A stretch of DNA of 64,000 nt from Candidatus Palauibacter polyketidifaciens (lineage in GTDB: Bacteria; Gemmatimonadota; Gemmatimonadetes; Palauibacterales; Palauibacteraceae): positions 37,326 through 101,325 of the forward strand of contig NZ_CANPVO010000006.1 of the NCBI RefSeq assembly GCF_947581785.1, written 5' to 3'. Every line of letters starts with the position of its first letter. The stretch's first letter is position 1. A model generated the notes under the pieces. That model was given only the letters and a program-made list of their open reading frames with translations, was not told the origin of the DNA and ran no database searches. Shown here in pieces: positions 19,632-54,749 of this stretch. A program made the translations under genes and the position numbers.

Positions 19632-20156
19632 ATGCACAGCGTGGTTGAACTGCGGGTGAACGGAGACCGGCGCCGGGTCGGAGTGCCGTCCCACTACACC
19701 CTCCTCGAGACCCTTCGCTACGGGCTCGGCCTCACGGGATCGAAGCAGGGGTGCGACAAGGGGGACTGCGGGGCGTGCACGGTGCTCCGCGATGGCGAGG
19801 CCGTGCTCTCCTGCATCATGCCGGTGCACGAAGCGACGGGTCACGAGATTACGACCGTCGAAGGTCTCGGGGACGCGTCCGGCCCCCACCCGCTCCAGGA
19901 TGCCTTCGATCTCACGGGAGGGGCGCAATGCGGCTTCTGCACACCGGGCATCCTCTGCTCGGCCCATGGACTGCTGACCCGCGATCCGGACCCCGCTCGC
20001 GAGGATGTCGCGCGGGCGCTCTCCGGCAATCTCTGCCGCTGCACCGGCTATACGAAGATCTTCGAGGCCGTGGACATCGCGGCCGAGGCGATTCGCACGG
20101 GCGAGACCCCCGAGGAGATCGTCTCCCGCCGCCGCGATCCGGGTGGGACGGCATGA
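19632..20156 (+). CDS. (2Fe-2S)-binding protein, CoxS/XdhC-small-subunit type (no signal peptide)
   Basis: Trimmed to ATG 19632. It has CDKGDCGACTV, CGFCTPG and CRCTGY. Confidence 0.9.
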   Translation: MHSVVELRVNGDRRRVGVPSHYTLLETLRYGLGLTGSKQGCDKGDCGACTVLRDGEAVLSCIMPVHEATGHEITTVEGLGDASGPHPLQDAFDLTGGAQCGFCTPGILCSAHGLLTRDPDPAREDVARALSGNLCRCTGYTKIFEAVDIAAEAIRTGETPEEIVSRRRDPGGTA

Positions 20157-22244: not shown

Positions 22245-22627
22245 GGACTCAGCGTCCTCGCACGCCCATACAGCTTGCCGGCAAGCCTCCGGATCCATCA
22301 CCACGACCGGGCGTCGCTGCTGGCCGGCAAACTGCACGCGACGCTCCACCGGCCCTGGCTGAAGGGCAGGGACATCTACGATCTCGTCTGGTACCTGAGC
22401 GATCCTGCGTGGCCGGAACCGAACCTCGATCTGCTGAACGCCGCGCGCCGCCAAACGGAGCCGACCGCGGCGGCGCTCACAGAGGACACGTGGCGGGAAA
22501 CGGTGCGGCGAGGGTCGCGGGCGAGGAGTGGGCGACGGTCGAGGCCGATGTCCGCCCCTTTCTGGAGAGCGGCGAAACGATGCCCGCGCTGGCCGACACG
22601 ATGGACCTGCTGCGCCCGGACCGCTGA
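22245..22627 (+). pseudogene. remnant of a nucleotidyltransferase AbiEii/AbiGii-type toxin gene (N-terminally truncated, one frameshift)
   Basis: Frame 0 gives ...LLAGKLHATLHRPWLKGRDIYDLVWYLSDP...TEDTWRETVRR. After a frameshift near 22505-22515, frame 2 continues VAGEEWATVEADVRPFLESGETMPALADTMDLL. The reading frame opens directly at the stop of the upstream gene, so the catalytic N-terminal half is missing. Confidence 0.5.
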
Positions 22628-22683
22628 CCCGAGACGAACTCGGCCCGCCTCCCTCGAACGGGCCGTCTAGCCTTCGAGGAGGC

Positions 22684-34761: not shown

Positions 34762-35946
34762 CTACTTGGAGCCGTATTTTCCGATGGCCTCGAAGTCGAG
34801 GTCCACCACGAATTCGCCCGAATCCGCGTCGCGCTCGAAGATGATGAAACCGAGTTCGGCAAGCCTCGTGAGTTCCCGGAAGAACGTTCGTGAAGTTACG
34901 GCGCGATAAACGGTGTCGACGAAGGGTGAATCGATCAGCGCGTCGAGCGAGAGTCGCCGAGAGGGGCTCTCCGAAAAGGGATCGGCCGGCTCCGTTTCCT
35001 CAAGGAGGAAACCCAGGAGGCCATGCTCCCGCTCGTTGATGAGACGGCGACGCTTGCTCACTCGCTTGTCGCGCGCCCAAGTCAACGTTTGCCGGTAGAC
35101 CAGGCGGTTCAGCTTCGAGTTGATGAAGGAGTTGATTCCGCGCAGCTCGGCGTCGAAGCCACGCAACCCGAACTCCACGAAGCGCGTGACGTCGACCGGT
35201 TGCACCCTGCGGCATTCCTGCTGGCGCCTTTTGTAGAGGTCTCCGTTGCGGTAGAAATAGTTCGAGAGCCCGTAGAAACCGTGGACGTTGTATCCCCCTT
35301 CAAAGAGGATGGCTGCCTCGACCAGCCTCGACACGCGGCCGTTTCCGTCTCCGAACGGATGGATGGTCACCAGGAAGAAGTGGGCGAGCAGCGCTCGGAC
35401 CACCGGATGCTCGTTCCGTACGCGCCGAGAGTTGACGAAGACGACGAAGTCGTCCAGCAACTGCGGGAGCTCCTCGTGAGGTGCTCCCAGGTGGACTCCT
35501 CCCAAATCCGGCGTACCCACCTGCACGCCGTATGCTCGCAGCCGGCCGGGTACGTTGTTTCCTTCATCGGAGCCCCTGGTGAGCAATTCATGCATTCGGA
35601 GGATGTCCGCCACCGCCAGCGGTGCCTCGCCGGGTCCGAACCGTTCGCGAACCCAGTTCTGGGCGGCATCGGCATTCTCGATCTGTCGAGATTCCCTAGT
35701 TGTGGCGCTGGCTTCGGTTTCACGATCCAGCAGTTCGCGCACCTGCGCTTCCGACAGCGGGTTGCCCTCGAGGGCGGTCGTGCCACGGATCGTCCTGATG
35801 CGATTCAATCGGTCGAGCTGGTCCCTCCAATCCGGGGGCAGCAGAAGTTTCTCGACGGCCTTCCGACTCGCCTCGATTTCGATGAGAAGGCTAGTCAGGC
35901 CGGGGCCGTCGAGGCGGTATTCGAAGCTGAACGTCTGCCAATCCAT
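34762..35946 (-). CDS. fic: Fic-family protein (AMPylase-type) with N-terminal inhibitory motif and C-terminal winged-helix-like domain
   Basis: HPFGDGNGRVSR matches HxFx(D/E)GNGRxxR. TTALEGN matches the (S/T)xxxE(G/N) inhibitory helix motif. My spot GC count is about 60%, against 75-80% in the flanks. Confidence 0.9.
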   Translation of the reverse strand: MDWQTFSFEYRLDGPGLTSLLIEIEASRKAVEKLLLPPDWRDQLDRLNRIRTIRGTTALEGNPLSEAQVRELLDRETEASATTRESRQIENADAAQNWVRERFGPGEAPLAVADILRMHELLTRGSDEGNNVPGRLRAYGVQVGTPDLGGVHLGAPHEELPQLLDDFVVFVNSRRVRNEHPVVRALLAHFFLVTIHPFGDGNGRVSRLVEAAILFEGGYNVHGFYGLSNYFYRNGDLYKRRQQECRRVQPVDVTRFVEFGLRGFDAELRGINSFINSKLNRLVYRQTLTWARDKRVSKRRRLINEREHGLLGFLLEETEPADPFSESPSRRLSLDALIDSPFVDTVYRAVTSRTFFRELTRLAELGFIIFERDADSGEFVVDLDFEAIGKYGSK

Positions 35947-36048: not shown

Positions 36049-37596
36049 ATGGATAGCATTCCTTACGTGACAGCTTGTACGACGGTGTTCACGACCGAAT
36101 CGGCGCACGCCCGAAAGGTTGTATTCGGGATATGCGCGGTTCTGCTCGCCGTGGGGATCGCGGCGTGCGGGGACGGGAGCACGGACCTTCCTCTGACGCA
36201 CGCTCCGAGGGCCGTCGGCGCGCTTCCCGACCTCGAACTTCCCGTGGGTGAGACGGCGCTGGTGGAGGTGACGGGCCTCTTCAGCGATGCGGACGGGGAT
36301 GTGCTTTCCTATGAGGTTCGGTCTTCGGCCCCCGACGTGGTCGCGGCGGAGGTGTCGGGCGGCACCGTGCGGCTGGTCGCCCTGGCGCGCGGGATGGCTA
36401 CGGTGACCGTCACGGCGCGCGATCCCCAAGGCCGGGCCGTCGCCCTCCGGTTCGAGGTCACCGTACCGAACGTGGCGCCGGTAACGATTGGCGCGATCCC
36501 CGATGTCGAACTTCGGGTCGGAAGTGCGGAGCTGCTCGCCGTATCGGGCTTCTTCTCCGATCCGGACGGCGACGCGCTACGCTACGAAGCCACGTCGTCG
36601 CAGCCGGACGTGGCCGGGATCGACGTCTCGGCGGACACCGTCACGGTAACCGCCCTCGCGGCGGGAACGTCGACGGTGACCGTCGCGGCGCGCGACCCTG
36701 GCGGGCTGGGCGCCGAACTGTCGTTCGCCGTGGAGGTCCGACCGGGCCGCAGGTTCGACATCGAGGTCCGCTTCGACACCACGGCTGCCGAGCCGTGGCG
36801 GGCCCCGGTCCTCGCGGCGGCGGAACTGTGGATGTCGGTGCTGGCCGATACGGAACTGCTCGAGGTTGCGGTCGACGACCGCATTGAATGTTACGGCGCG
36901 AGCACGGCGGAGCCGGTCGGCACCATCGATGACCTGATGGTTCTCGTCGAGTTCCGGGAGATCGACGGTCCGGGCCGCACGCTCGCCCAGGCCGGCGTGT
37001 GCCGCCTGCGCGAAGGGTCAATGCTGCCGGTCGCGAGCGTGGCGTTCTTCGATGTGGCGGACATCGACCGGCTCATCGACTCCGGCGACGCGGTGGAACT
37101 CGCGGTTCACGAGATCGCGCACGCGCTCGGATTCGGCCTGCTGTGGCGCCCTCTCGGTCTCCTCCGGGATCCCTCCCTGGGCGTGGGAGCGATCGACGCG
37201 CATTTCGTGGGTCCCGGGGCCATCGCCGCCTTCGACGCGGCGGGCGGCACGGACTACACGGGCGGGGCGAAGGTCCCCGTCGAGAACCGCGGCGGAGCCG
37301 GGAGCGCGAACCTCCATTGGCGGGGCTCCGTCCTCCGGGGGGAACTCATGAGGCCGCTCAACAGGATCGGAGTCCGGGAGGCCCTCAGCGCGGTCACGAT
37401 CCGGTCGCTGGCCGACCTGGGTTACGCAGTCGACGCGAGCCAGGCGGAGCCGTACACGCTCCCCGGCGTTGGCGCCGCGGACGAGAAACCCGGCCGCGTG
37501 GTCGACCTGGGCGACGATGTCCTCAGGGGGCCGGTGCAGGTCGTCGATTCGGCCGGCCGCGTCGTGCGCGTGCTCCGCGACCGTTCGCCGGAGTAG
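36049..37596 (+). CDS. lipoprotein with two tandem Ig-like domains and a leishmanolysin-like (M8) zinc-metalloprotease domain
   Basis: Lipobox LAVGIAAC. Two domains of about 90 aa are homologous (PDLELPVGETALVEVTGLFSDADGDVLSYEV... and PDVELRVGSAELLAVSGFFSDPDGDALRYEA...). HEIAHALGFG is HExxHxxGF. Confidence 0.7.
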   Translation: MDSIPYVTACTTVFTTESAHARKVVFGICAVLLAVGIAACGDGSTDLPLTHAPRAVGALPDLELPVGETALVEVTGLFSDADGDVLSYEVRSSAPDVVAAEVSGGTVRLVALARGMATVTVTARDPQGRAVALRFEVTVPNVAPVTIGAIPDVELRVGSAELLAVSGFFSDPDGDALRYEATSSQPDVAGIDVSADTVTVTALAAGTSTVTVAARDPGGLGAELSFAVEVRPGRRFDIEVRFDTTAAEPWRAPVLAAAELWMSVLADTELLEVAVDDRIECYGASTAEPVGTIDDLMVLVEFREIDGPGRTLAQAGVCRLREGSMLPVASVAFFDVADIDRLIDSGDAVELAVHEIAHALGFGLLWRPLGLLRDPSLGVGAIDAHFVGPGAIAAFDAAGGTDYTGGAKVPVENRGGAGSANLHWRGSVLRGELMRPLNRIGVREALSAVTIRSLADLGYAVDASQAEPYTLPGVGAADEKPGRVVDLGDDVLRGPVQVVDSAGRVVRVLRDRSPE

Positions 37597-37607: not shown

Positions 37608-37637
37608 TTGACCGAACAAACCGCGGATTCCTATGCT
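37608..37637 (+). promoter_or_regulatory. candidate sigma-70-type promoter for the RND/P450/methyltransferase run
   Basis: TTGACC (37608-13), an 18-bp spacer, then TATGCT (37632-37), 38 nt upstream of the adaptor gene ATG. Consensus-based guess only. Confidence 0.3.
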
Positions 37638-37674: not shown

Positions 37675-38895
37675 ATGCTGCGCAGATTGCTGTTCGGATC
37701 CAGTCTCAGGATCATCGCCGTGATCATCGTCGGTACGATTGCGGTCGCGGCACTAATGCTCTCGCTCGCCCCCGAACCGGAGAGCCAGGAGCCGCCCCCC
37801 CAGATCCCGTTTGCGCAAACGGCCGGCGTTGTGGCCGGATCGGGCGCGATACCCGTGTTCGGATCCGGCACCGTGCGGCCAAGCGAGGAGATCGATGTCG
37901 CACCCCAGGTGGGCGGCAAGGTCGTCTGGGTCAATCCGCGGTTCCAGAGCGGAGGGCGCGTCGAGGCGGGCCAGACGCTCTTCCGCATCGAAGAAGCCGA
38001 CTACGCGTACCGCGTACAGGTAGCGGAAGCGAACGTCGCGGCAAGCCGCGTCGCCTTCCTCGAGGAACAGGAACGGGCGAAGATCGCCAGCGCCCAGTAT
38101 GAACTGTACTCGGAGCGGCGCGAGACGGGCCCCCCGCCGTCGGAGGCGAGTCCGCTCACATTGAGGGAGCCTCAGCTGGAAGCGGCCAGCGCCGCGCTGA
38201 GCCGGGACGAAGCCCGGCTTGAGGAGGCGAGGCTTGCGCTCTCCAGGACCCAGGTCACCGCGCCGTTCGATGGCTTCGTGCGCGAGGAGTCCGTCGATGC
38301 GGGGCAGGTCGTGAACCCCGGGCAGCCCGTCGGACGCCTCTTCGCTTCGGAGGCGGTGGAGGTCGTCGTTCCCCTCTCCGACGCCGACGCCGCCCTGGTC
38401 CCCGGATTGTGGGGGCTCGAGGCAGGCGACGGAGCACGGGACGTAGCGGCCCGTGTGATCGCCCACTACGGGGAGGTGATGTACGCCTGGGAGGGTTACG
38501 TGGATCGGGGTGAGAGTTCCGTTGACGCGCAGACACGCACCATCGACGTGATCGTGCGCGTGCCGGACCCGTTCGACCCAAGCGCGCGGGCGGGCCCGTC
38601 CGCCGCGGTCGGGAGCGATCCTCCGTTGCTGGTCGGCAAGTTCGTGGAGGTGGAGATCGAGGGACTCTCACCGGAGGACTACTTCCGGATCCCGCGAGCG
38701 GCGCTGCAACCTGGCAACGAAATCTGGACGGTTGACCGCGACGGCGTCGTGAACATCGTTCCGGTTCAGGTGCTGCAACGCGCCAACGATGCAGTGTTCG
38801 TCACCGGTGCCCTGCGAGGCGGCCAGTCGGTAGTCACCGGTGGACTTCAGTTCGCCACCGAAGGGATGCGCGTCCAGACCGACCCGGCGCGATGA
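37675..38895 (+). CDS. efflux RND transporter periplasmic adaptor (membrane fusion protein)
   Basis: N-terminal TM segment. GTVRPSEEIDVAPQVGGKV and the coiled-coil region VAEANVAASRVAF...L..A...L....V.APFDG are HlyD/MFP-like. Confidence 0.9.
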   Translation: MLRRLLFGSSLRIIAVIIVGTIAVAALMLSLAPEPESQEPPPQIPFAQTAGVVAGSGAIPVFGSGTVRPSEEIDVAPQVGGKVVWVNPRFQSGGRVEAGQTLFRIEEADYAYRVQVAEANVAASRVAFLEEQERAKIASAQYELYSERRETGPPPSEASPLTLREPQLEAASAALSRDEARLEEARLALSRTQVTAPFDGFVREESVDAGQVVNPGQPVGRLFASEAVEVVVPLSDADAALVPGLWGLEAGDGARDVAARVIAHYGEVMYAWEGYVDRGESSVDAQTRTIDVIVRVPDPFDPSARAGPSAAVGSDPPLLVGKFVEVEIEGLSPEDYFRIPRAALQPGNEIWTVDRDGVVNIVPVQVLQRANDAVFVTGALRGGQSVVTGGLQFATEGMRVQTDPAR

Positions 38896-41800
38896 ATCCC
38901 GACGCGGGTCCCGAACCGGACGACCGCCGCGAGCGGTCCGGCCCGCTCGCCTACATGGCCAGCAACGGCATCGCGGCCAATCTCCTGATGATGGGCATCG
39001 TTGCGGCCGGACTCGTGGCCCTGACCGGCCTCGAGCGAGAAGCCTGGCCCATCACCCCCTTCTACCACATCGAAGTCTCGATGGCCTATCCCGGCGCCAC
39101 GCCGGAGGAGATCGAGGAGTCGATCATCGTCAAGATCGAGGACCAGGTCAGCGGGCTCGATGACGTGAGGGCTGTCAAGTCCCTGGCGGCTCCGGGCATT
39201 GCCTCCGTGCGGATCCAGATGGATTCCCGCACGGACATGGCTCGGGCCCTGGACGACATCGAATCCGCCGTCAATCGTGTCCAGTCCTTCCCGGCCGGAG
39301 CCGAACGTCCGCGTTTCCAGGAGATGGACAACCGCTTCAGCATGATGCGGCTCATCGTCCACGGCGACGTCTCCGAGCGCTCGCTGAAGGAACTGGCGCA
39401 TCGGATCGAGGACGACCTTGCCGCGCTACCCTCCGTCTCCCAGGTCGAGGTCAGCGGGGTCCGGAACTACGAGATCTCCATCGAGGTATCGCTTCACCGG
39501 CTCAGAGCCCTGGGACTCTCTCTCACCGACGTTGCCGGGGCGATCCGCCGCAGTTCGCTCGACCTGTCGGCCGGAAGCATCGACACGCGGGAATCCCAGG
39601 TTCGAGTGCGGACCCTCGGGCAGAACTACGACCAGCAGGACTTCGAGGAAATCGTCCTTCTCAGCGGCCGCGACGGCACGGTCGTGCGCCTCGGCGACAT
39701 TGCCGAGGTCCGCGACGGGTTCCAGGAGGCAGACCTGATCGTCCGCCATCAGGACCAGCCCGCCGTATTCGTCGAGGTTTACCGGGCCGGTGGCGAGCAG
39801 GTGATGGATGTGGCCACGACCGTCCGTCGGCACCTGGCGAACGAGGTGATCCCGGCCTTGCCGGACAGCGTGGGCATCACCCTGTGGAACGACGAGTCCC
39901 AGGCCTACGAGGAGCGCGCCGATCTTCTTCTGAAGAACGGATTTCTGGGTTTGTTGCTGGTGTTGGTCGCACTGAGCCTGTTTCTACAGGTTCGGCTTGC
40001 CCTGTGGGTCGCCGTGGGCCTCGCCGTTTCGGGTGTAGGCGCCCTCGCCGCCATGATGGCGTTCGACGTGGCGATCAACACCATCAGCCTCTTCTCCTTT
40101 GTCCTCGCCATTGGGATCGTCGTTGACGACGCCATCGTTGTGGCCGAGCACATTCAACACGAACGCAATCAGGGAACCCCCGGGGTCGCGGCCGCGATCC
40201 GCGGCGTCCGGCGGATCAAGGTGCCGTTGACGTTCGCCGTCCTCACCTCGGTGGTGGCTTTCGTCCCGTTGTTGTTCATCCCGGGCGGTGTCGGTGACGT
40301 GTGGCGGGCCCTGCCGATCATCATGATCGCCATGCTGCTGTTTTCGCTGGTGGAATCGCTGTTCGTCCTGCCGAACCACCTGTCCCACCTGCCCGGTCCG
40401 GAATGGGTGCCGGGCAATGCCTTCGACCGATTCTTCTCGCGACTCCAGAGTCGTGTCGACGCCCAATTGCAGCGGTTCATCCAGGGGCCCTTGGACCGGG
40501 CACTGCGGTTTGCCACGGCCCGGCCCGGGGTGACGATGACGGGGGCCGTTGCAATGCTCGTGCTGAGCATTTCCCTGTTGCCCGCGGGAATCGTCCCCAC
40601 CACGCTGGCCGACGACGTGGAGGGCGATATCGTGACGGTCGTGTTGGAGATGCCCGATGGGGCCACCGCTCCGAGAACGTACGAGGTCGCCCGGGAGCTG
40701 GAGGCCGCGGGCCACCGGGTCATCGAACAACTCTCTCGAAGCCGGCCCGCGGACGCGCCGCCGCTGCTAACCGGCGTCACCGTGACCGTCGGACTGGGAT
40801 CGAGAATCGAGGGCGGACTCAACCCGCAGCCCACCCTCAATCCGCAGGCCAATATCGCCACCATCGAGTTCAAGCTCCTCGGTGCGCAGCAGAGACGGAT
40901 CTCCACCGGAGAAGTCGTGCAGGCGTGGCGCGAGGAGGTGGGTGTGCTGCCCTACGTCCGCGGCATCACCTTCAGCGGCGAGATCTTCACCCTGGGGAAC
41001 CCGGTCGAGGTCGTACTGTCGCACCCGGACCCGGAGCGGCTCGCCGGGATCGCCGGCTCGGTGGTCGACGGACTCCGCAGCGTGAGAGGCGTCTACGACA
41101 TACGGTCGGATCACGCCCCGGGGATCCCGGAAGTTCAGCTGGAGTTGCGGCCCGAGGCGCGGACCCTCGGTCTCACCGTGCAGGAGTTGGCGGGACAGGC
41201 GAGGGCCGCGTTCTTCGGCGCGGAAGCCGTCCGGGTGCAGCGCGGCCGGGAAGAGGTACGAGTCTATGTTCGGCTGCCCGCGGAAGAACGAAACTCGATT
41301 ACCGATATCGAAGGCTACCTGCTCCGTACGCCGGGCGGGGACGAGGTGCCGATGGTCAGTGTGGCGTCGCTGGTCCCGGGCGTTTCGCCATCGGCCCTCC
41401 GGCGCAGGGACGGCCAGCGCGTCGTCACCGTCACCGCCGATGTGGACGCCTCGGTGATCTCAGGCGACGAAGCCAACGAGATCCTGGCCGGTTCGATCCT
41501 CGCGGACCTGGCCGCGGCGTACCCGGGCCTCACATACACGTTCGGGGGCGAGCAGCAGCAGCAGCTGGAGTCGATCGACGCGCTGTACCGCGGCTTCGCG
41601 GTCGCTCTGATCCTGATTTTCGCGCTCCTCGCCATCCCCCTCCGTTCATATACCAAGCCGTTCATCATCATGGCCGTCATCCCCTTCGGGTTCATCGGCG
41701 TGATCCTGGGCCACTGGATCCTGGGAGTAGCTCTGAGCGCCGTCTCCTTCATGGGGATCTTCGGTCTGAGCGGCGTGGTGGTGAACGATTCCCTGGTCAT

Positions 41801-42098
41801 GATCGACTTCATCGATCAGAAACTCCGGGAGGGCGTCCCGCCGCGAACCGCGATCATGGAGGGGGCAAAAGGGCGTTTTCGTCCGATCATGCTCACTTCC
41901 CTGACCACGTTCCTCGGCTTCACCCCCCTGATCCTGGAGCGCGCCATCCAGGCCCAATTCCTGATTCCGTTTGCCGCGTCACTCGGTTGCGGCATTCTCT
42001 TCATCACGGCCATACTCATGATGGTAGTTCCGGCGCTATGCACGTTGCATCTGCGCTTGATGCCGTCGCGGCGTCCTTCGATTCCGAACGCCGCGTAG
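38892..42098 (+). CDS. efflux RND transporter permease (AcrB/HAE-type, 1068 aa)
   Basis: ATGA overlap with the adaptor gene. Twelve-TM RND layout with two large periplasmic loops. GIVVDDAIVVAEHI and VVNDSLVMIDF are the conserved TM4/TM10 motifs. Confidence 0.9.
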   Translation: MNPDAGPEPDDRRERSGPLAYMASNGIAANLLMMGIVAAGLVALTGLEREAWPITPFYHIEVSMAYPGATPEEIEESIIVKIEDQVSGLDDVRAVKSLAAPGIASVRIQMDSRTDMARALDDIESAVNRVQSFPAGAERPRFQEMDNRFSMMRLIVHGDVSERSLKELAHRIEDDLAALPSVSQVEVSGVRNYEISIEVSLHRLRALGLSLTDVAGAIRRSSLDLSAGSIDTRESQVRVRTLGQNYDQQDFEEIVLLSGRDGTVVRLGDIAEVRDGFQEADLIVRHQDQPAVFVEVYRAGGEQVMDVATTVRRHLANEVIPALPDSVGITLWNDESQAYEERADLLLKNGFLGLLLVLVALSLFLQVRLALWVAVGLAVSGVGALAAMMAFDVAINTISLFSFVLAIGIVVDDAIVVAEHIQHERNQGTPGVAAAIRGVRRIKVPLTFAVLTSVVAFVPLLFIPGGVGDVWRALPIIMIAMLLFSLVESLFVLPNHLSHLPGPEWVPGNAFDRFFSRLQSRVDAQLQRFIQGPLDRALRFATARPGVTMTGAVAMLVLSISLLPAGIVPTTLADDVEGDIVTVVLEMPDGATAPRTYEVARELEAAGHRVIEQLSRSRPADAPPLLTGVTVTVGLGSRIEGGLNPQPTLNPQANIATIEFKLLGAQQRRISTGEVVQAWREEVGVLPYVRGITFSGEIFTLGNPVEVVLSHPDPERLAGIAGSVVDGLRSVRGVYDIRSDHAPGIPEVQLELRPEARTLGLTVQELAGQARAAFFGAEAVRVQRGREEVRVYVRLPAEERNSITDIEGYLLRTPGGDEVPMVSVASLVPGVSPSALRRRDGQRVVTVTADVDASVISGDEANEILAGSILADLAAAYPGLTYTFGGEQQQQLESIDALYRGFAVALILIFALLAIPLRSYTKPFIIMAVIPFGFIGVILGHWILGVALSAVSFMGIFGLSGVVVNDSLVMIDFIDQKLREGVPPRTAIMEGAKGRFRPIMLTSLTTFLGFTPLILERAIQAQFLIPFAASLGCGILFITAILMMVVPALCTLHLRLMPSRRPSIPNAA

Positions 42099-42132: not shown

Positions 42133-44160
42133 ATGACGGTGGAGAGTCTGAAGGTCGAATCCCTGAGCCTCGTCGACGAACTCATCCTGATGCTTCTCGA
42201 CGAGAAGGGAGGCTACTTCCATCAGGTCCCCGGCTGGCAACTGAACTGCGCCGTGGTCGGCGGGGTGCTGGCGGAACTCTCCTTCCGGTCGCGGCTCGAC
42301 TCGGACCTGACATCCCTGTACGTGGTGGACCGGGACGAAACGGGCGATCCCGTCCTGGATCCCATTCTGAAGGAGATCGCGGACGAACCGGTCCAACGCA
42401 CGGCCCGGTACTGGGTCGAACGGCTCGCCCCCCGCGCGGAGTCGGTCGTCGACCTGACCTTGGATCGCCTGGTTCAACGGGGGATCCTCCAACACCACGA
42501 CGGGGAATTCTGGACGCTGGCTCCCCCCGTCATGCATCGGCAGCAGTACGGGATGTTCGAGGAAGACGCGACCGACCAGTTCATCAAGGCGCGCATCGGC
42601 AACGTCATCTTCGCCGACGAGGTTCCCGAACCGAGAGACGTCGTCATCGTCTGCCTCGTCAACACCTGCGACGTCTTTCGCCTGATCTTCGAACTCGATG
42701 AAGCGGCGGAAGAGCGCATCAAGTGGATATGCCAGCTGGACCTGATCGGCCGGTCCATCGCCGCTGCGGTCTCCGAGAACCTCGTCGGCCCGATTCGCAG
42801 ACATGCTCCTCTCGCCAAGAAGATTCCGACGGTTTCGCTGACTAGGCTGCTGCGCAACCCGCATGTCCGAGACGGCAACCTGAACGCGCTCTTCGGAAGC
42901 CTCGCGGAGGAGTACGGTCCGGTGTTCCAGATCCGGCCTCCCTTCTCGGAGCGCATGATCTTCCTGGCCGGACTCGAGACGAATGAATGGATGCAGAAGC
43001 GCGGGCGCATGTACCTGAGAACCAGGGACTACTTCGCCGACTTCGAGAAGGTCTACGGCGCGGCCGGCGTTCTGCCCGCCCTTGACGGGACCGACCACTT
43101 CCGGCTTCGCAAGTTCCTGTCGCCGGCCTATTCCCGCACGAGGCTGGCGGGGCAGCTGGACGAGCTCTACAGCAGGGGGCGAGCGTACATGTCGACGCTG
43201 GCGGTCGGGGATTCGTACCGCGCCACGTCCATGAGCCGGGCAATGGTGAACGCCCAGCTATCGCCGCTGTTCATCGGCGTCGACACGCAGGATCTCATGG
43301 GCGACCTGATGGTCTATAAGGAGCGGGCCCTCAGCGTGCATATTGCCAGGGTCCTGCCCGAGTTCACGCTGCATACCCCGGGTATGAGACGTCGGGCGGC
43401 CGTCCTGGAGACGCTGATGAAGCGGATCTTGAGCGTCCATACTCCGGCCCAACGCGTGGACAGCCAACGGAACCTGGTGGACGACTACCTCAGCCTGCAT
43501 GCCAGCGACCCGCAGTTTCTCCCGGAGTCCAACCTGCTCTTCGCTTTTTCCGCGGCCCTGATTGCCAGCGTGTACCTCGGTGACACGTTCAGCCTCGTCG
43601 TCTACGCCATGGCGTCGCAGCCCGCGCTCTACGAGAGGATCCGCGCCGAAGCGGACGCGCTGTTTGCCAGCGGTGACCCCGAAAAAGAGGACTTCACCCC
43701 GGCCAACATCGACGTGACGCATCGCTTCCTCATGGAGTGCATGCGCATGTACCCGATCGTGCCCATGTCTGTTCGGAACGTGATGAATACCTGCACGGTC
43801 GAGAACTACGAGTTACCCCTGGGGGAACGGATCCACATCGCCATGACCGCCACGCACTACATGAGCGACGTCTTTCCCGAACCCCACAAGTTTGACATCG
43901 ACCGCTTCCTGCCGTCGCGCCGTGAGCATCATAGCCTCGGGTTCGCCCCGTACGGGCTGGGTACGCACAAGTGTCTCGGCACCCGCTGGATGGAGATGCA
44001 CCTGGCGGCCAACCTGTTGATGCTGGCGCACTACTTCACGATCGAGGTGTCGCCGGCGAAATACGCCCGGAAGCTCCGCTTCAATCCGGTTCCGTCGCTG
44101 AAGCCGAGCAAGAAGGTCAGGTTCCGCATTACCGAGCAGAGGCGGGAGCTGCCCGCCTGA
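42133..44160 (+). CDS. fusion protein: N-terminal GPP34/GOLPH3-family domain + C-terminal cytochrome P450
   Basis: Residues about 10-215 read LSLVDELILMLLDEKGGYF....LNCAVVGGVLAELSFRSRL....TGDPVLDPILKEIA...RTARYWVERL....LDRLVQRGIL, which is the GPP34 pattern. The C-terminal region has ExxR (ECMR) and the heme loop FAPYGLGTHKCLG (Cys codon 43972-74). Confidence 0.85.
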   Translation: MTVESLKVESLSLVDELILMLLDEKGGYFHQVPGWQLNCAVVGGVLAELSFRSRLDSDLTSLYVVDRDETGDPVLDPILKEIADEPVQRTARYWVERLAPRAESVVDLTLDRLVQRGILQHHDGEFWTLAPPVMHRQQYGMFEEDATDQFIKARIGNVIFADEVPEPRDVVIVCLVNTCDVFRLIFELDEAAEERIKWICQLDLIGRSIAAAVSENLVGPIRRHAPLAKKIPTVSLTRLLRNPHVRDGNLNALFGSLAEEYGPVFQIRPPFSERMIFLAGLETNEWMQKRGRMYLRTRDYFADFEKVYGAAGVLPALDGTDHFRLRKFLSPAYSRTRLAGQLDELYSRGRAYMSTLAVGDSYRATSMSRAMVNAQLSPLFIGVDTQDLMGDLMVYKERALSVHIARVLPEFTLHTPGMRRRAAVLETLMKRILSVHTPAQRVDSQRNLVDDYLSLHASDPQFLPESNLLFAFSAALIASVYLGDTFSLVVYAMASQPALYERIRAEADALFASGDPEKEDFTPANIDVTHRFLMECMRMYPIVPMSVRNVMNTCTVENYELPLGERIHIAMTATHYMSDVFPEPHKFDIDRFLPSRREHHSLGFAPYGLGTHKCLGTRWMEMHLAANLLMLAHYFTIEVSPAKYARKLRFNPVPSLKPSKKVRFRITEQRRELPA

Positions 44161-44171
44161 GCCCCCCCGAT

Positions 44172-45203
44172 TTGCGACTGGGCAAACTGTCGAAAGCGCT
44201 GCGGGATGCGCACCCGGGATCGGGCGTCGCGCGTCGAGTCCGGCACTTTGACGGCTGGCTTGAGCGGGCGGCATCGGAGGCTGCCGGCGCCGGCACCTAC
44301 GACCACGCGGAAACGGTCAGGGACTACTACGAGCTGTGCAACGGTTTCATGGTGTACGGCTGGGGCGAATCCCTGCATTTTGCGCCCCTCACGCCCGACG
44401 AAAGCCTGGAGGAGTCCAAGGTCCGGCACCAGCGGGCGATGATCTCCAGGTTGAAGCTGGAACAGGGCATGAAGGTGGTCGACGTCGGTTGTGGAATCGG
44501 CGGCCCCATGCGCCGAGTCGCCCGTGAGGCGGGCGTCAGGGTCGTGGGAATCAACATCAATGACATCCAGCTCGCGGAGGCGAAGAAGTTGAACGCCGAG
44601 GCGGGGCTGGAGCACATGACCGATTTCAGGAAGTGCAGCTTCGAGGATATGAGCGCCATCGAGGCCGACACCTTCGATGGGGGTTACGCGATAGAGTCGA
44701 CGTGCCATGCGCAGGACAAGCGACGCGCGTTCGCGGAGATATTCCGCATACTGAAGCCGGGCGCCCTGTTCTGGGGTCAGGAAATGTGCCTGACGGACCG
44801 GTTCGATCCCGGGAATGCCCGGCACCGGACCATCAAGCGGGAGCTCATGCGCGGTATTGCGCTGCACGACATCGCCACGTTCGGGGAAGTGAACCGCGCT
44901 CTCGAAGGGGCGGGATTCCAGGTCATCGAGGGGAGTGATTGGGAGGTCCGGGAAGGACCCGCCACCCCGTGGTATCAACCCATGGAGAGTCGGCACGGGA
45001 CGTTGGGGACTGCGGTGCGCAGGCTTCCCCGGGGCCGCAAGGCGTTCATCGCGGGGTCGAAGTTGGCCGAGGTACTGCGGTTCTTTCCGAGGGGCTCGGC
45101 GGAGGTGGTTCGGCTCCTTGATCGAACCGCGGAGGCTTACGTCGAGGGCGGCAGGACGGGCATCTTCACGCCCCTGTACTGTTTCCTGGCCCGCAAGCTC
45201 TAG
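44172..45203 (+). CDS. sterol C-24 methyltransferase-like (ERG6/SMT family) SAM-dependent methyltransferase
   Basis: YYELCNGFMVYGWGESLHFAP, VVDVGCGIGGP, YAIESTCHAQ, LKPGALF, PWYQPM and FTPLYCFLARK align block-for-block with what I recall of yeast ERG6 (YYNVVTDFYEYGWGSSFHF, LDVGCGVGGP, YAIEATCHAP, IPWYYPL, LFTPMMLFVARK). The start is TTG 44172, or CTG 44157 overlapping the P450 stop. Confidence 0.85.
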   Translation: MRLGKLSKALRDAHPGSGVARRVRHFDGWLERAASEAAGAGTYDHAETVRDYYELCNGFMVYGWGESLHFAPLTPDESLEESKVRHQRAMISRLKLEQGMKVVDVGCGIGGPMRRVAREAGVRVVGININDIQLAEAKKLNAEAGLEHMTDFRKCSFEDMSAIEADTFDGGYAIESTCHAQDKRRAFAEIFRILKPGALFWGQEMCLTDRFDPGNARHRTIKRELMRGIALHDIATFGEVNRALEGAGFQVIEGSDWEVREGPATPWYQPMESRHGTLGTAVRRLPRGRKAFIAGSKLAEVLRFFPRGSAEVVRLLDRTAEAYVEGGRTGIFTPLYCFLARKL

Positions 45204-45216
45204 CAGCCAGGGGCTG

Positions 45217-46260
45217 CTAGTCGGCGTTGCGGTCCGGGCTTCGCGGCGCCGGCGCCGGGTCCGGATAGAACTGTCGGCAGTGTCGGCGGTACTTCCCGAT
45301 GGGGCCGTCCGTCCGGCAAAGCCGGGGGGGAGACCGGTAGCGCTTCCTGTCCCATATCACGATGTCCTGCAGTACGAACCGCCTCTCCTCGCGGAGGATG
45401 AAGAAATTCAGCAGCCGGTGGCGCAGCGGCACGGGTAGAAAGCCCAGACCCGATATGAACCGCCCCGGTTTCCGGATCTCCCGCACCTGGTTGACCATCG
45501 TCAACTCCACGAATTCGCCGTCGACGGGCGTTGTGAGCACCCACATGCGCGACCTCACGCCGACCGACTTCTCGTGAATCTCGACGAAGGAGTAGCCGAG
45601 TCCGTGGACGTGCGTGACGACCGAGACTTCGGAATGAATGTCCACCAGACCAAGGATCCGGCGAACCGCCTTGAAGTCGAAACAGCTCCTCAGGTAGGCG
45701 CCGTCGGTCGAAAAGTCGGTCGGCTCCACATCGTGGTAGCCATGCGTGTACTCCAGGTGTTCCACGTCGACCGAGTTCTCCGTCGTCTCCTGGGGATGCC
45801 CTCGGAACCGCAGGATCGTGGAGCGCAAACCGGTCCACTCCGCGCCGGCGGGTGGCTCATCCGGCAGGTGCCATTGAGGGCCTCGGCCACCGCTCCCCCA
45901 CCAGGCGAAGATCATGCCGAGGATCTCCCGGGTCTCGTAGAGCTTCAGCTTCGCGGCCTTCGGAGGCGGAGCATTGGGCGTGGCCACGCACTGGCCGGTC
46001 GTGTCGAACTCGAACCCGTGAAACGGACAGACGAGGCAGCCGTCGCGCACCAGACCGCCCGTGGTCGGTCCCATATGCGAGCCCAGGTGCGGACAGAAGG
46101 CGTCCGCCACGCAGATGCGGCCCTCGTCGTCGGCCCAGGCGACGATCTCCTCGCCCATCCACGTCTTCTCGATGAGCTTCGCGCGCTCGATGGACGTGCG
46201 GCGTCCGATGAAATACCAGCCTTCGGGAAACGGCGGCAGCGCATCGCTGTACGTAGCCAT
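45217..46260 (-). CDS. Rieske [2Fe-2S] non-heme-iron oxygenase, Neverland/DAF-36- or KshA/SdmA-like
   Basis: CPHLGSHMGPTTGGLVRDGCLVCPFHGFEF is the Rieske centre. ENSVDVEHLEYTH matches the mononuclear iron motif Ex3Dx2Hx4H. Confidence 0.85.
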   Translation of the reverse strand: MATYSDALPPFPEGWYFIGRRTSIERAKLIEKTWMGEEIVAWADDEGRICVADAFCPHLGSHMGPTTGGLVRDGCLVCPFHGFEFDTTGQCVATPNAPPPKAAKLKLYETREILGMIFAWWGSGGRGPQWHLPDEPPAGAEWTGLRSTILRFRGHPQETTENSVDVEHLEYTHGYHDVEPTDFSTDGAYLRSCFDFKAVRRILGLVDIHSEVSVVTHVHGLGYSFVEIHEKSVGVRSRMWVLTTPVDGEFVELTMVNQVREIRKPGRFISGLGFLPVPLRHRLLNFFILREERRFVLQDIVIWDRKRYRSPPRLCRTDGPIGKYRRHCRQFYPDPAPAPRSPDRNAD

Positions 46261-46362: not shown

Positions 46363-48969
46363 ATGACTCTGGACTCTGCGCCGCGCGTCTCGGTTCTCAT
46401 GCTCTTCGCCGCGATGGCCGCCGGCCTGCCGGCGAACGGCTCCGGCCAGACCGCCGCCGAGGTTCCGCGCTTCGAGATCGCGTCGTCGCCGATCGAACTC
46501 ACGGGACCCGTCCGTCCCGGCGAGTACCTGGGCGTGACCGGACCCCGGTCCGCGTGGCTCGGCCTCGAGACCGGGGAGGCGGAGCTGTGGGTCCACCCCC
46601 TCAAGGTCGGAAACCGGTTTCGGCTCGGCTTCTCGACCCCGGCCTACGGCGCGCCGATTCCCGGTAGCGCCGTCGCGCGCACGGTGCATGTCCGGCCCGA
46701 ACTGACGACGATCGCCTACAGCCACGCGGCCTTTCAGGTGCGCCAGCACATCCTTGCGCCCGCCGAACTCCCCGGCCTCCTGGTTCTGCTCGAGGTGGAC
46801 AGCCCCGAACCACTCGAGATCATCGCCGAGTTCGAGCCGGTGCTGAACTACATGTGGCCGGGTTCGCTGGGGGGGCAGTACGCCTACTGGGACGGCGGCC
46901 GGCGCGCCTTCGTGCTGTCCGAGAGCCTGCAGGAGACGAACGCCGTCGTCGGGTCGCCGTGGGCCGTCAACTCGGTCGAACACCCGGCGCATCAACTGGG
47001 CGAAGCGCCGCGCACCATGGTGATCCCGGTCGAGCCGGAACGCGCCCGACGGGAGTTCATCCCCATCGCCGTAGCGGGCGGCACCATGCCCCGCGAGGAG
47101 GTCTTCGCCAGCTACGATCGGCTGATCGCCGAGGCCCACTCGCTGTACGGCGCGAAACGGGCATGGGCCGACTCGGTGCTCGCCTCCACCGTCTCCATCG
47201 AGTCGCCGGATCCACAGCTCGACCTCGCCCTCGAGTGGGCGAAGATCAACCTGGAGGAGCAGCGCGTCTGCAATCCCGACCTCGGCTGCGGGTTCGTCGC
47301 GGGCTGGGGCCTGTCGCGCAACGGAACCCGTCCCGGATTCGGATGGTTCTTCGGCGGCGACGCGGCGCAGACGACCTTCGCCATGGATGTGCTCGGGCAG
47401 TGGGGGGTGGTGGCGGAGGAACTCGCCTTTCTCGCGAGATACCAGCGTGAAGACGGGAAGATCACGCACGAAATCTCTCAGGCGGCCGCGCGCATCCCGT
47501 GGTTCGAGGTGTATCCGTACGCCTACTACCACGCGGACACCACGCCCTACTGGATGGTCGCGCTGTACGAATACTGGCGGGCGAGCGGGGACGACGAACT
47601 GCTGCGGGAGCTGTGGCCGGCCTACCGGCGCGCGTGGGAATGGTGCCTCGGCGCCGAGACCGACGGCGACGGAATCATCGAAAACACGGTGGGCGGGCTC
47701 GCAGCGGTCGAGGTCGGGGGCCTCGGGGCGGCGCTCCACCAGGACGTCTACCTGGCAGGGGTTTGGACCGCGGCCCTCGAGGGGACCGCGGCGCTGGCGG
47801 AGCGCATGGGCGAACCCGGGATGGCGAATCGGGCTCGGGAGATGGCTCCCCGCGCGCGGAAGACGCTGAACGACGCGTACTGGCTCGAGGAGGCGGGGCA
47901 CCATGCCTTCGGGATCCTCGCCGATGGCGGCACCAACGACAATCTGACCGTGTGGCCCGCGACGGCGGCCGCGTTCGGCCTGTTCGACGAGGCGCGCGGG
48001 CGATCGACCCTCGCCCGGCTCGCGAGCGACCGGATCTCGTCGGACTGGGGCGCCCACATGCTCTCGACGGAGAGCGAACTGTATCACCCGCTCCAGTACA
48101 ACATGGGTTCGGTGTGGCCCTTCGTGACGGCGTACGTGTCGTGGGCCCAGTACCGGTACCGGCGTCCATGGGCGGGCTTCCACCTCGTGGACGCGGTGAA
48201 GCAGATGACCTTCGACTGGAGCCTAGGACGCCATCCGGAGTTGCTGTCCGGAACGTTCTACCAGCCCCTCGACCAGACCGTCCCGCACCAGTTCTTCGCG
48301 ACTTCGGCCCTGGTGACACCGTTACTGCGCGGCGTCATCGGCTGGGAGCCCGATGCGCCGCTGGACCGCGTGCGCCTCGCCCCGCAACTCCCGCCGGATT
48401 GGCCGGCCGTGACGGTGAGACGGCTCCGAGCCGGGGAAACGGCGACGGACGTGGAGATCCGACAACGGTGGACGGCCGAAGGCGGGGAGCGACGGACGAC
48501 GCTCACGACCACGGGGCCTGCGCTGACATTCGCCTTCGTACCCGACGTGCCGGCGGGCGCGCGGGACGTGTCCATCGGCGTGAACGGGGCAGTCACCGAA
48601 CTCACCGAGGATGGAACGGTGGAGGTGACGCTGGGCGAGACCGTCGCCGCCGGCGACCGCGCGGAAATCGTCGTGACGTGGGGCGGCGGGCTCGCGATCG
48701 CGCCGCCCCGGATCGACTTGGAGCCCGGTCAAGTGAGCAGCGGCCTGCGCATCCTCGACTTCAACGCAGATCCGGATGGCTGGCTTCTCGAAGTGGAGGG
48801 ACTGGCGGGTCGGAGCTACGACCTCGGACTCTTCGGCGCCACGGTCGAAGCTGACGTCGTGCAAGGGGCCGCAACGACCGCTCTGGCCAACCCCGCGACC
48901 GTACGTATTGCGTTTCCTCCGGACACTGCGGAACGCACGACAGCTGTGGTTCGTTTCACGACCCCGTAG
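46363..48969 (+). CDS. secreted (alpha/alpha)6-barrel glycoside hydrolase, amylo-alpha-1,6-glucosidase (GDE_C)-like
   Basis: Trimmed to ATG 46363 (GTG 46360 is also possible), with GAAAGCGAGGA upstream. It has a signal peptide. GFGWFFGGDAAQTTFAM resembles the PWF..WFGRD motif of GDE_C-type enzymes. Confidence 0.65.
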   Translation: MTLDSAPRVSVLMLFAAMAAGLPANGSGQTAAEVPRFEIASSPIELTGPVRPGEYLGVTGPRSAWLGLETGEAELWVHPLKVGNRFRLGFSTPAYGAPIPGSAVARTVHVRPELTTIAYSHAAFQVRQHILAPAELPGLLVLLEVDSPEPLEIIAEFEPVLNYMWPGSLGGQYAYWDGGRRAFVLSESLQETNAVVGSPWAVNSVEHPAHQLGEAPRTMVIPVEPERARREFIPIAVAGGTMPREEVFASYDRLIAEAHSLYGAKRAWADSVLASTVSIESPDPQLDLALEWAKINLEEQRVCNPDLGCGFVAGWGLSRNGTRPGFGWFFGGDAAQTTFAMDVLGQWGVVAEELAFLARYQREDGKITHEISQAAARIPWFEVYPYAYYHADTTPYWMVALYEYWRASGDDELLRELWPAYRRAWEWCLGAETDGDGIIENTVGGLAAVEVGGLGAALHQDVYLAGVWTAALEGTAALAERMGEPGMANRAREMAPRARKTLNDAYWLEEAGHHAFGILADGGTNDNLTVWPATAAAFGLFDEARGRSTLARLASDRISSDWGAHMLSTESELYHPLQYNMGSVWPFVTAYVSWAQYRYRRPWAGFHLVDAVKQMTFDWSLGRHPELLSGTFYQPLDQTVPHQFFATSALVTPLLRGVIGWEPDAPLDRVRLAPQLPPDWPAVTVRRLRAGETATDVEIRQRWTAEGGERRTTLTTTGPALTFAFVPDVPAGARDVSIGVNGAVTELTEDGTVEVTLGETVAAGDRAEIVVTWGGGLAIAPPRIDLEPGQVSSGLRILDFNADPDGWLLEVEGLAGRSYDLGLFGATVEADVVQGAATTALANPATVRIAFPPDTAERTTAVVRFTTP

Positions 48970-54044: not shown

Positions 54045-54749
54045 TCAGTCTGCCGCCGGGTTCCGGAAAGGAAGCCGCAGCGCCAGGAAGAGCCCGATGG
54101 CCACCGGTTCGAGGAGCGGAATGTACCACGGCCAGTTCGGGAAAACGTCCAGTATCGATGCCGTCGGCGGCTTGTCGATAAGATACAGGTAGTTGGACCC
54201 GAGTACGCGGTTGATGGGATACACCGCGATGGCGTACACGTTCAGCAGGCCGAACGCCAGCCAGGGATCCCGCGCCTTCGGCCGGTAGTCCTCCACCGTC
54301 ACCGCCCACACGCCCGCGATGACGGCGATTCCGTGCGACGCCATCGTCTCGTAGAAGGCGAAATGGAGAACGCCGTGGGACGCATCGGGCGTCAGCACGG
54401 CCTGAACGGCCCCCGCGACGCCGAAGAAGTACATGAGCCGAAGGGTCCAGAGGTGCCGCGTCCACAGCCCGTACACCGTCATCCAGGCCATCGCCGCGCA
54501 CAGGTGCAGCGGGAGGTCGTTCTGCAGGGTCCATATCCCGACCGAAGCTTTCCACATGTGCCTGAGGCCGAGGAGAAGGAGGATCGCGGCGCCCATGGCG
54601 AAGCGGAGGCGGCGGCGCCGATCCTCGTCGCCAGCCATGCCTGCCCGGATCAGACAGACTCCGATCGCGACCAACACGCCCATCGTCACGAGATGGACCG
54701 GGCCGAAGAGATCCAGCGGTACCGACTCCGTCCCGAAGAACCCGCTCAT
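54045..54749 (-). CDS. YwaF/TMEM164-like integral membrane protein (TIGR02206-type)
   Basis: Seven hydrophobic segments. LPLHLCAAMAW...FFGVAGAVQAVLTPD resembles the YwaF family. Tentative. Confidence 0.55.
   Translation of the reverse strand: MSGFFGTESVPLDLFGPVHLVTMGVLVAIGVCLIRAGMAGDEDRRRRLRFAMGAAILLLLGLRHMWKASVGIWTLQNDLPLHLCAAMAWMTVYGLWTRHLWTLRLMYFFGVAGAVQAVLTPDASHGVLHFAFYETMASHGIAVIAGVWAVTVEDYRPKARDPWLAFGLLNVYAIAVYPINRVLGSNYLYLIDKPPTASILDVFPNWPWYIPLLEPVAIGLFLALRLPFRNPAAD

Follow-up and report, generated by a model that had tools for sequence, protein, structure and literature searches.

Organization of the GPP34–P450 locus

We analyzed a 64,000-nucleotide stretch of the genome of Candidatus Palauibacter polyketidifaciens (contig NZ_CANPVO010000006.1; this whole stretch is hereafter called the window), in which one unbroken open reading frame (ORF), running from ATG to TGA, encodes a 675-residue protein made of an N-terminal GPP34 (GOLPH3/Vps74-like) domain and a C-terminal cytochrome P450. 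The fusion gene, its domains and the surrounding genes are listed in Table 1. Both domains scored above the curated Pfam cut-offs: GPP34 (PF05719) reached 102.6 bits against 29.1, with positions 1–199 of the 201-position profile covered, and p450 (PF00067) reached 116.3 bits against 22.8. This bears out the two-domain call of an initial annotation that had been made from the DNA sequence alone, including the GPP34 homology that it proposed for residues 1–215, and all motifs quoted there (the GPP34 pattern, ExxR, the heme loop and the I-helix) were located in the protein. Among the motifs, LSLVDELILMLLDEKGGYF occupies residues 11–29, DGTDHFRLRKFLSPAYS residues 318–334 and FDIDRF residues 587–592.

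The P450 half begins with a Pro-rich motif (KKIPTVSL, residues 229–236), and a basic stretch (residues 218–240, net charge +5) contains the interdomain linker. In 46 diverse relatives that were 25–76% identical to the window protein, E535, R538, R591 (the PERF-type Arg) and C614 were invariant. The heme-thiolate loop FxxGxxxCxG of P450s is present; within it, G608, H612 and C614 were invariant and G610 was at least 90% conserved. The ORF had a gene-like codon-position GC pattern (GC at third positions 0.84), and neither a signal peptide nor a transmembrane helix was predicted in its product. An identical protein is present in NCBI, ENA and UniRef; its 90%-identity cluster also holds proteins of Candidatus Palauibacter species that are annotated just as "cytochrome P450".

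The fusion is the third gene of a same-strand run that consists of a periplasmic adaptor (membrane fusion protein, MFP), a resistance-nodulation-division (RND) permease, the fusion and a homolog of sterol C-24 methyltransferase (SMT), with gaps of −4, 34 and 11 nt. The end of the MFP gene and the start of the RND gene overlap by 4 nt, and the SMT gene probably starts with a TTG at 44172, 11 nt past the fusion stop. Regions typical of SMTs (MVYGWGESLHF, VDVGCGIGGP and YAIESTCHA) were recognized in its product. The best solved relative of the product of the convergent Rieske gene was 3-ketosteroid 9α-hydroxylase KshA (E 3.5e-22). The sole same-strand promoter-like site near this cassette lies at 37608–37637, upstream of the MFP gene, and a scan for promoters and terminators found nothing decisive inside the cassette. 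In line with the initial annotation, no redox partner was found next to the fusion: neither a ferredoxin nor a reductase gene was seen in the cassette (~36–49 kb). The nearest 2Fe-2S proteins, both Fer2 + Fer2_2, are encoded at 1366–1998, where the gene adjoins that of a molybdopterin-binding subunit, and by an ORF at 18315–20156.

Table 1. Fusion gene, its domains and motifs, and neighboring cassette genes in the window (residue numbers refer to the fusion protein)
Feature	Position (nt)	Strand	Evidence or remark
RND periplasmic adaptor (MFP), first gene of the run	37675..38895	+	Pfam HlyD_3, HlyD_D23; NCBIfam RND_mfp 161 bits vs 94.9
AcrB-type RND permease	38892..42098	+	Pfam ACR_tran E 3.5e-157; stop 34 nt before fusion ATG
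GPP34–cytochrome P450 fusion gene (GPP34_L family member)	42133..44160	+	Intact ORF; both Pfam domains above cut-offs
GPP34 (GOLPH3/Vps74-like) domain, residues 13–214	42169..42774	+	Pfam PF05719 E 3.7e-29
Interdomain linker, residues 215–228	42775..42816	+	pLDDT <50 at 218–224
Cytochrome P450 domain, residues ~229–675	42817..44157	+	Pfam p450 E 2e-33
I-helix segment AALIASVYLGDTFS, residues 474–487, without acid–alcohol pair	43552..43593	+	Alignments
ExxR motif, E535–R538	43735..43746	+	Invariant in 46 relatives
Heme-binding loop FAPYGLGTHKCLG, residues 604–616, thiolate ligand Cys614	43942..43980	+	Conservation in alignments
Sterol C-24 methyltransferase homolog (SMT)	44172..45203	+	Pfam CMAS + Sterol_MT_C, E 1.7e-12
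Rieske [2Fe-2S] oxygenase with KshA-type catalytic domain, convergent with SMT	45217..46260	-	Pfam Rieske + KshA_C

Distribution of the fusion

The initial annotation had suggested a search for co-occurrence of the two domains, and both were found in all 120 listed clusters at 68–100% identity, in each case within a single ORF of 662–686 residues. An exhaustive HMMER search of 1.8 billion representatives returned 360 matches at E ≤1e-30. Among the best 150 of these, 47 were full-length fusions (630–720 residues; representatives of clusters at 50% identity) that were 26–55% identical to the query. In addition, a scan of one genome per species detected the fusion in at least 561 stretches belonging to ~10 phylum-level lineages. 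The best 80 stretches encoded proteins 62–96% identical to the window protein, many of them on megabase-size records titled "chromosome", and carried the labels of metagenome-assembled genomes (MAGs) of Gemmatimonadota/Longimicrobiales, Vicinamibacteria, Latescibacterota, Dehalococcoidia/Chloroflexota, Nitrospirales, Opitutia, Binatia, Thermodesulfobacteriota, Rhodothermaceae and Paracoccaceae.

An artificial joining of two genes by assembly or annotation, through the missed stop or frameshift that the initial annotation had asked to be excluded, was rejected. The same single ORF recurs in all 120 clusters, in the 47 diverse full-length representatives and in the genomic stretches, and its junction is conserved and was modeled, leaving such an artefact a negligible chance.

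GC content was 62–66% at 39–46 kb, the region of the RND, fusion, SMT and Rieske genes, versus 68–70% in most of the surrounding sequence (62–70% over 30–56 kb of the window). The high identity across phyla and this GC dip over the cassette suggest that the cassette has spread by horizontal transfer.

The architecture and its ecological distribution have already been published, so that the fusion itself is a known one. Under the name GPP34_L, Ferreira et al. 2025 (Microbiome 13:4, PMC11706023) reported 656 GPP34+P450 proteins, which were monophyletic, restricted to sponge symbionts of many phyla, carried by 92.6% of Gemmatimonadota symbiont genomes and expressed in situ. The window protein belongs to this family, with the same architecture and from the same kind of host-associated bacteria; there is no structural difference, and the published account departs from ours in that it contains no enzymatic role and proposes a secreted effector. 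The view of the fusion as unusual, taken in the initial annotation, is thus not upheld: sponge and coral symbionts commonly encode this architecture, and its description as a biochemically uncharacterized family is in print. Sterols and methyltransferases are not mentioned by Ferreira et al. (PMC11706023), and a literature search yielded no further relevant paper on a bacterial GPP34–P450 fusion. Nor did this search find a paper that connects the fusion to a sterol-type cassette or reports the missing phosphatidylinositol 4-phosphate (PI4P) site or the I-helix subclasses, all of which are described below.

Judging from their records, contigs related to the window derive from sponge metagenomes and MAGs. 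The loci L018 (MAG Plut_88884) and L046 (MAG Plut_88904), which also carry the fusion, come from MAGs labelled Plut_, which we read as the coral Porites lutea. Because these two appear to be coral MAGs, a distribution exclusive to sponge symbionts looks too narrow. A split-gene GPP34 arrangement was also reported in Actinobacteriota (PMC11706023); it was not reproduced in the related loci, in which no short GPP34-only gene lay beside a stand-alone P450 homolog.

The GPP34 domain and the PI4P pocket

A profile of 19 N-terminal domains of the family matched human GOLPH3 over nearly the whole domain (3kn1, E 5e-13; 9qpq, E 9e-13). The window domain shares with human GOLPH3 and yeast Vps74 (PDB 3KN1, 2ZIH) a homologous fold, a helical core with a β-hairpin, which lies at residues 119–129 in the AlphaFold model. 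Unlike these proteins, it is bacterial, acidic and fused to an enzyme, and it does not have the residues of the PI4P pocket. In GOLPH3, the pocket consists of W81, R90, R171 and R174, and binding is lost in the double mutants W81A/R90A and R171A/R174A (Wood et al. 2009, PMC2806290). The equivalents in the window protein are P33, V42, E103 and V106, respectively. Pro occupied the W81 position in 120 of 123 clade sequences; the R90 position was never basic family-wide (Ala, Val or Ile); the R171 position was mostly Asp or Glu in the family; and the R174 position had Arg in about half of the diverse set and Ile, Val, Ser or Asn in the window's clade. None of the R90, R171 and R174 positions was basic in the 123-sequence clade alignment. 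As judged from these alignments, the structural basis for PI4P binding is removed in the window's clade.

Ferreira et al. propose that GPP34 proteins are effectors that are secreted, bind PI4P and keep phagosomes from maturing (PMC11706023). For the fusion, this would mean release into the sponge cell and attachment to PI4P on the phagosome, with the P450 as an accessory. The near confinement of the family to sponge and coral symbionts and its expression in situ fit such an effector, as do the true homology of the fold to GOLPH3 and the Arg kept at the R174 position in part of the family; moreover, the P450 resembles eukaryote-type (microsomal-like) P450s, for which a host reductase would be usable in principle. 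However, the window protein has P, V, E and V at the four pocket positions; across the family, a basic residue is never seen at the R90 position, and the R171 position usually bears Asp or Glu; the N-terminal domain as a whole is acidic; and no signal peptide was found. In addition, the fusion is operonic with an SMT, its neighbors are small-molecule RND/MFS pumps and lipid enzymes rather than protein secretion systems, and a heme enzyme dependent on a redox partner would be odd as a secreted protein. We consider a secreted effector highly improbable.

Residues 1–217 had a net charge of −19 (family median −12, range −19 to 0), while the P450 domain was basic (+6 in the window protein, family median +6.5). 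The AlphaFold2 model, based on the 123-sequence alignment, had a mean predicted local distance difference test score (pLDDT) of 86.5 and a predicted template modeling score (pTM) of 0.83, with pLDDT below 50 limited to residues 1–9, 138–149 and the linker (218–224); a 41%-identical paralog gave a pTM of 0.76. Because both pTM values exceed ~0.67, the share of residues in the larger domain, the GPP34 and P450 domains are predicted to be docked in a fixed arrangement, which was a point the initial annotation had wished to see modeled.

Fixed docking and the opposite charges of the two halves (medians −12 and +6.5) are also compatible with GPP34 as a protein–protein adaptor or regulatory lid, whose acidic surface would dock the P450 to a transporter or redox partner, or would gate the basic face of the P450. 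GOLPH3 itself has an adaptor role, in which it recognizes short basic cytosolic tails of membrane enzymes, and a transporter is co-encoded in 60 of the 71 related loci for which neighbors were counted (see below). Nevertheless, the co-encoded pumps come from unrelated families (AcrB, MMPL, MFS and ABC), which speaks against a single specific docking partner, and we regard the adaptor or lid function as quite unlikely.

The P450 domain and its active site

The closest solved structures by sequence (phmmer) were CYP51 of M. capsulatus (McCYP51, E 2e-19) and CYP120A1, and the best fold neighbors (Foldseek) were CYP184A1, McCYP51, P450 BM3 and CYP120A1, with TM-scores of 0.77–0.83 when normalized by target length. 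Lipid substrates are common to these fold neighbors (CYP184A1 with oleate, CYP51 with lanosterol, BM3 and CYP120A1). The Foldseek matches were confined to the P450 domain and the query-normalized TM-score never exceeded 0.57, which indicates that no solved structure has the same two-domain design. In the Foldseek alignments with the best fold neighbors, including solved CYP51s, identity was 19–21%.

The I-helix motif (A/G)Gx(D/E)T(T/S) is typical of the P450 superfamily but not obligatory. It is absent from the window protein, in which AALIASVYLGDTFS is present instead. This departure, first pointed out in the initial annotation, is real and clade-wide: the window's clade has A-S-x-Y-L-G (A-S-V-Y-L-G in the window protein), with Tyr481 invariant and Gly483 at least 90% conserved. 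The clade consensus has Ala where the window protein has Thr485, and Leu482 sits at the position of the conserved Thr of McCYP51 in the phmmer alignment. Elsewhere in the family, many distant fusion members have a canonical AG(L/I)(D/E)T, a few have a CYP51-like AGxHT(S/A), and a group that we designated class B (~40% identical) has AGHY(L/T)G. On the strength of these alignments, the acid–alcohol pair for O2 activation is lost in the window's clade. In known P450s, loss of this pair accompanies desaturase, isomerase, peroxygenase or substrate-assisted chemistry.

Two candidate identities were rejected. The protein is not a CYP51, in agreement with the initial annotation, which had found no match to CYP51 signatures: its 19–21% identity to solved CYP51s lies below the family level (≥40%), there is no (A/G)GQHTS and no HTS in the I-helix, and Brown et al. 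list a separate ERG11/CYP51 homolog for the cluster that adjoins one relative (L046, see below). Nor is it a fusion of a P450 with its redox partner; the N-terminal domain matched GPP34 alone, with no Pfam match to a flavin or Fe-S domain, and its cysteines were not conserved across the family. P450 BM3/CYP102, CYP116B and CYP51-Fx likewise combine a P450 and a helper domain on a single polypeptide, but the N-terminal helper of the window protein cannot supply electrons. The CYP51-ferredoxin fusion of M. capsulatus (PDB 6MCW, 7JJ1, 7SNM) resembles the window protein in being a bacterial sterol-pathway P450, a fusion protein and the best solved relative by sequence; it differs in that the extra domain of the window protein is N-terminal and without a redox cofactor, and in that the window protein has no HT(S).

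Conserved neighborhood of the fusion

All ORFs of at least 110 residues from 82 loci of the window's clade were clustered all-against-all and the recurrent clusters were annotated; ORFs below 110 residues were outside the clustering, so small ferredoxins would be missed. The context sample consisted of the best-scoring 80 loci per scan, and neighbors were counted in the 71 loci that had at least 5 kb on each side of the fusion. An SMT was present in 58 loci, at ≤500 bp from the fusion in 47 of them, and a Rieske/KshA_C protein in 59; the two occurred jointly in 49. At least one transporter (AcrB, MMPL, MFS or ABC) was encoded in 60 loci, and comprised AcrB-type RND proteins in 26 (≤500 bp from the fusion in 20), MMPL/Patched/sterol-sensing RND proteins in 34, and MFS and ABC transporters in 15 each. 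Other recurrent neighbors were an FAD amine-oxidase-like protein of ~460 residues (37 loci), an LppX/LprAFG-type lipoprotein (15 loci) and an ERG4/ERG24 sterol reductase (7 loci). Three loci had none of SMT, Rieske protein and transporter.

The FAD amine-oxidase-like protein (e.g., L054:7402-8790) is absent from the window. Its best solved relatives were LkcE (E 1e-30) and the entry 2b9w, which we take to be a fatty-acid double-bond isomerase of Propionibacterium acnes. The FAD protein is a candidate for reducing or isomerizing a double bond in the methylated side chain.

Other clades of the fusion lie beside RND or MFS pumps without an SMT. AcrB and MFP were found in 9 of 10 class B loci, 8 of which also had OEP, and MFS in 8 of 13 loci of the clade with the canonical I-helix. 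Neighboring paralogous fusions of these other clades, directly beside AcrB/OEP/adaptor efflux operons and with no SMT, were seen in L083:5807-9995 (divergent) and in L082:1-10010 (two copies within 8 kb).

The association of efflux pumps with every fusion clade raises the question of general detoxification, in which the P450 would oxidize membrane-partitioning hydrophobic metabolites of sponge or microbial origin (terpenoids, brominated alkaloids, fatty acids), an RND or MFS pump would expel them, and the SMT and Rieske protein would be secondary. Several paralogous fusions stand side by side in genomes, as in a diversifying xenobiotic family, and fatty-acid P450s are among the fold neighbors. 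In the window's clade, however, the tightest neighbor is the SMT and not the pump (47 versus 20 loci at ≤500 bp), the recruited enzymes are of steroid type (KshA_C Rieske, ERG4/ERG24 and the RND protein with a sterol-sensing domain), and in two loci (L046 and L020) a de novo sterol cluster directly adjoins the cassette. Loss of the oxygen-activation motif would also be unusual for a broad-range hydroxylase. Detoxification is, in our opinion, unlikely.

Link to de novo sterol clusters

The locus L046 is a 70,077-bp contig of a Nitrospirales MAG (JAAXIB010000027.1). Its gene order in L046:9953-21871 is fusion, SMT, Rieske/KshA_C, outer-membrane barrel, FAD oxidoreductase, second SMT, SdmB-like (303 bits), SdmA-like (414.7 bits, E 2.6e-124) and ERG24-type reductase. 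In L020, also a Nitrospirales MAG, the cassette adjoins a second SMT, an SdmA-like Rieske protein and ERG24. Brown et al. 2023 (PMC10070321) studied a scaffold of 70,077 bp from "Nitrospira sp., coral reef 1 and 2", with genes for SMT (…270), SMT (…274), sdmB (…275), sdmA (…276), ERG24 (…277), ERG11/CYP51 (…278) and OSC (…279), and the "Nitrospira 1 of 2" SMT converted desmosterol to (epi)codisterol in their work (PMC10070321). Because length, taxon and gene order all agree, the L046 contig is, judging by these features, almost certainly the scaffold of Brown et al. The fusion would then be the gene just before …270, outside their gene list. Beyond this scaffold, the related loci did not match any of the SMT contigs assayed by Brown et al.

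The L046 cluster has its own SdmA-like gene and a listed ERG11/CYP51, and the fused P450 and the cassette Rieske protein may therefore be additional tailoring enzymes. The cassette Rieske protein itself was rejected as an SdmA: it scored 32–32.7 bits against a model cut-off of 600, compared with 414.7 bits for the SdmA-like gene of L046. The window SMT was 75% identical to the fusion-adjacent SMT of L046 and 44% identical to the other SMT of that locus. The arrangement in L046 places the cassette in sterol metabolism, and the sterol framing adopted in the initial annotation gained support from it as well as from the SMT homolog next to the fusion and the conserved neighborhood.

In a study of Ircinia symbionts (Kelly et al. 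2022, PMC9531527), 115 of 537 MAGs from 10 phyla had ERG24-CYP51-OSC clusters. Horizontal transfer was indicated and SMTs were enriched, and many lineages that carry the cassette recur in the list of that study. The sterol clusters of sponge symbionts (PMC10070321, PMC9531527) and the cassette have in common the symbiont phyla, horizontal spread and an SMT, and they are contiguous in L046 and L020. In contrast, the defining genes of the published clusters (OSC, CYP51, ERG24 and SdmA/B) are all missing from the window. GPP34–P450 fusions, KshA-like Rieske proteins and the FAD oxidoreductase are not listed as pathway genes in either PMC10070321 or PMC9531527.

Proposed role

We infer the substrate class, reaction, location and GPP34 role of the fusion from the evidence above. 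The fusion would be a cytoplasmic heme-thiolate P450 with a rigidly docked N-terminal GPP34-fold domain, working at the membrane, and one enzyme of a cassette that has spread horizontally among sponge and coral symbionts. This cassette would comprise the fusion, an SMT, a KshA-like Rieske protein, often an FAD amine-oxidase-like oxidoreductase, and an RND or MFS transporter; it would tailor sterols or related membrane isoprenoid lipids, either the bacterium's own or those of the host, and move them across the envelope. The substrate of the P450 may be a sterol or sterol-like membrane lipid that is alkylated by the neighboring SMT, and the P450 would carry out a further oxidative modification, for instance a desaturation or a nonstandard oxidation, rather than C-14 demethylation. 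The pump would import or export the substrate or the product. GPP34 may replace the membrane anchor of eukaryotic sterol P450s and hold the enzyme at the inner membrane face; alternatively, it may present the lipid or bridge the P450 to the transporter. In each case its mechanism would not involve a PI4P pocket like that of GOLPH3. The membrane tethering or lipid delivery suggested in the initial annotation is plausible: the predicted fixed packing of the domains favors it, whereas the altered pocket residues and the net charge of −19 speak against a GOLPH3-like mode.

Our confidence differs between the parts of this proposal. The assignment to a sterol cassette is likely. That the fusion is a cytoplasmic, membrane-associated P450 tailoring sterols or lipids within such a cassette has, in our estimate, an even chance, and a role of GPP34 in membrane association or lipid handling is possible, at somewhat less than even chances. 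Ferreira et al. also observed rarer fusions, GPP34+Rieske and GPP34+ABC-ATPase, which lend Rosetta-stone support in that they involve other component types of the cassette (PMC11706023). A wider generalization, in which the bacterial GPP34 fold, joined to P450s, Rieske proteins and ABC ATPases, is a sterol/membrane-lipid module feeding oxygenases and the cassette a mobile device of sponge and coral symbionts from many phyla for the alkylation, oxidation and export of their own or host sterols, is more speculative and we hold it as doubtful.

Several observations weigh against the sterol-tailoring proposal. First, the window was without OSC, CYP51, ERG24 and SdmA/SdmB over its 64 kb (Pfam on the main candidate ORFs; motif scans for DCTAE, SHC and further P450 loops), and because of the missing OSC, CYP51 and SdmA/B, sterols would have to be supplied from elsewhere in the genome or from the host. 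Second, although we infer that the SMT gene of the window encodes a sterol methyltransferase, the specificity of this exact ortholog is likewise an extrapolation from sequence, and the assayed "Nitrospira 1 of 2" SMT could be either of the two SMTs of L046. Third, the pumps are of three unrelated types, with which general hydrophobic efflux fits as well as sterol trafficking. Fourth, the net charge of −19 makes electrostatic binding of the N-terminal domain to anionic lipid unlikely, which argues against simple electrostatic attachment to anionic bacterial membranes. Finally, MAG taxonomy and binning may inflate the apparent range of phyla.

Other genes in the window

Directly past the cassette lies a GH116/DUF608-like glycoside hydrolase homolog (46363-48969, + strand; DUF608 E 2.2e-10, MGH1-like GH), whose ORF is open from 45574 and whose probable start follows the Rieske gene. 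This ORF family was found in 6 of the 82 related loci. Eukaryotic GH116 (GBA2) acts on glucosylceramide and steryl glucosides, and the hydrolase could be part of the lipid theme. On the other side, a leishmanolysin-like M8 peptidase with bacterial Ig-like domains (36049-37596, +) is encoded just upstream of the pump operon, as is a Fic/DOC-family protein (34762-35946, -); both families are often linked to host interaction.

Further away, we detected a TMEM164-family protein (54045-54749, -; Pfam E 6.8e-51). Members of this family are better known from animals, in which they act in ether-phospholipid remodeling, and finding one in a host-associated bacterium is noteworthy. A 637-residue protein (54794-56707, -) combined a glucosamine-6-phosphate isomerase/6-phosphogluconolactonase-type domain with PIG-L (GlcNAc-PI de-N-acetylase). 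An HNH endonuclease gene (16811-17395, +) and a short AbiEii-toxin-like fragment (22275-22670, +) are possible remnants of mobile or defence elements. Three ORFs with gene-like codon GC, 2141-4270, 13043-14467 and 26578-27705 (all on the - strand; 709, 474 and 375 residues, respectively), had no Pfam match at E ≤1e-4.

Implications for sponge and coral symbionts

GPP34_L is among the clearest gene families that separate sponge symbionts from their free-living relatives, and homology to GOLPH3 is the basis of the sole hypothesis published for it, that of a secreted PI4P effector. The new finding is that the fusions of this subfamily lie beside an SMT, a steroid-type Rieske protein and lipid pumps in ~80% of genomes, in an operon-like cassette, and that this cassette is tied physically to an assayed sterol cluster; the literature on a symbiosis marker gene is thereby joined to that on bacterial sterol alkylation. 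The cassette context also suggests what bacterial GPP34 domains may be for. The hypothesis bears on where unusual sponge sterols and sterane biomarkers come from. If the wider generalization is true, symbiont enzymes would contribute to the unconventional sterols of sponges, which would bear on the debate about 24-isopropylcholestane as a "sponge biomarker", and a marker family of symbiosis would be reassigned from immune evasion to lipid chemistry.

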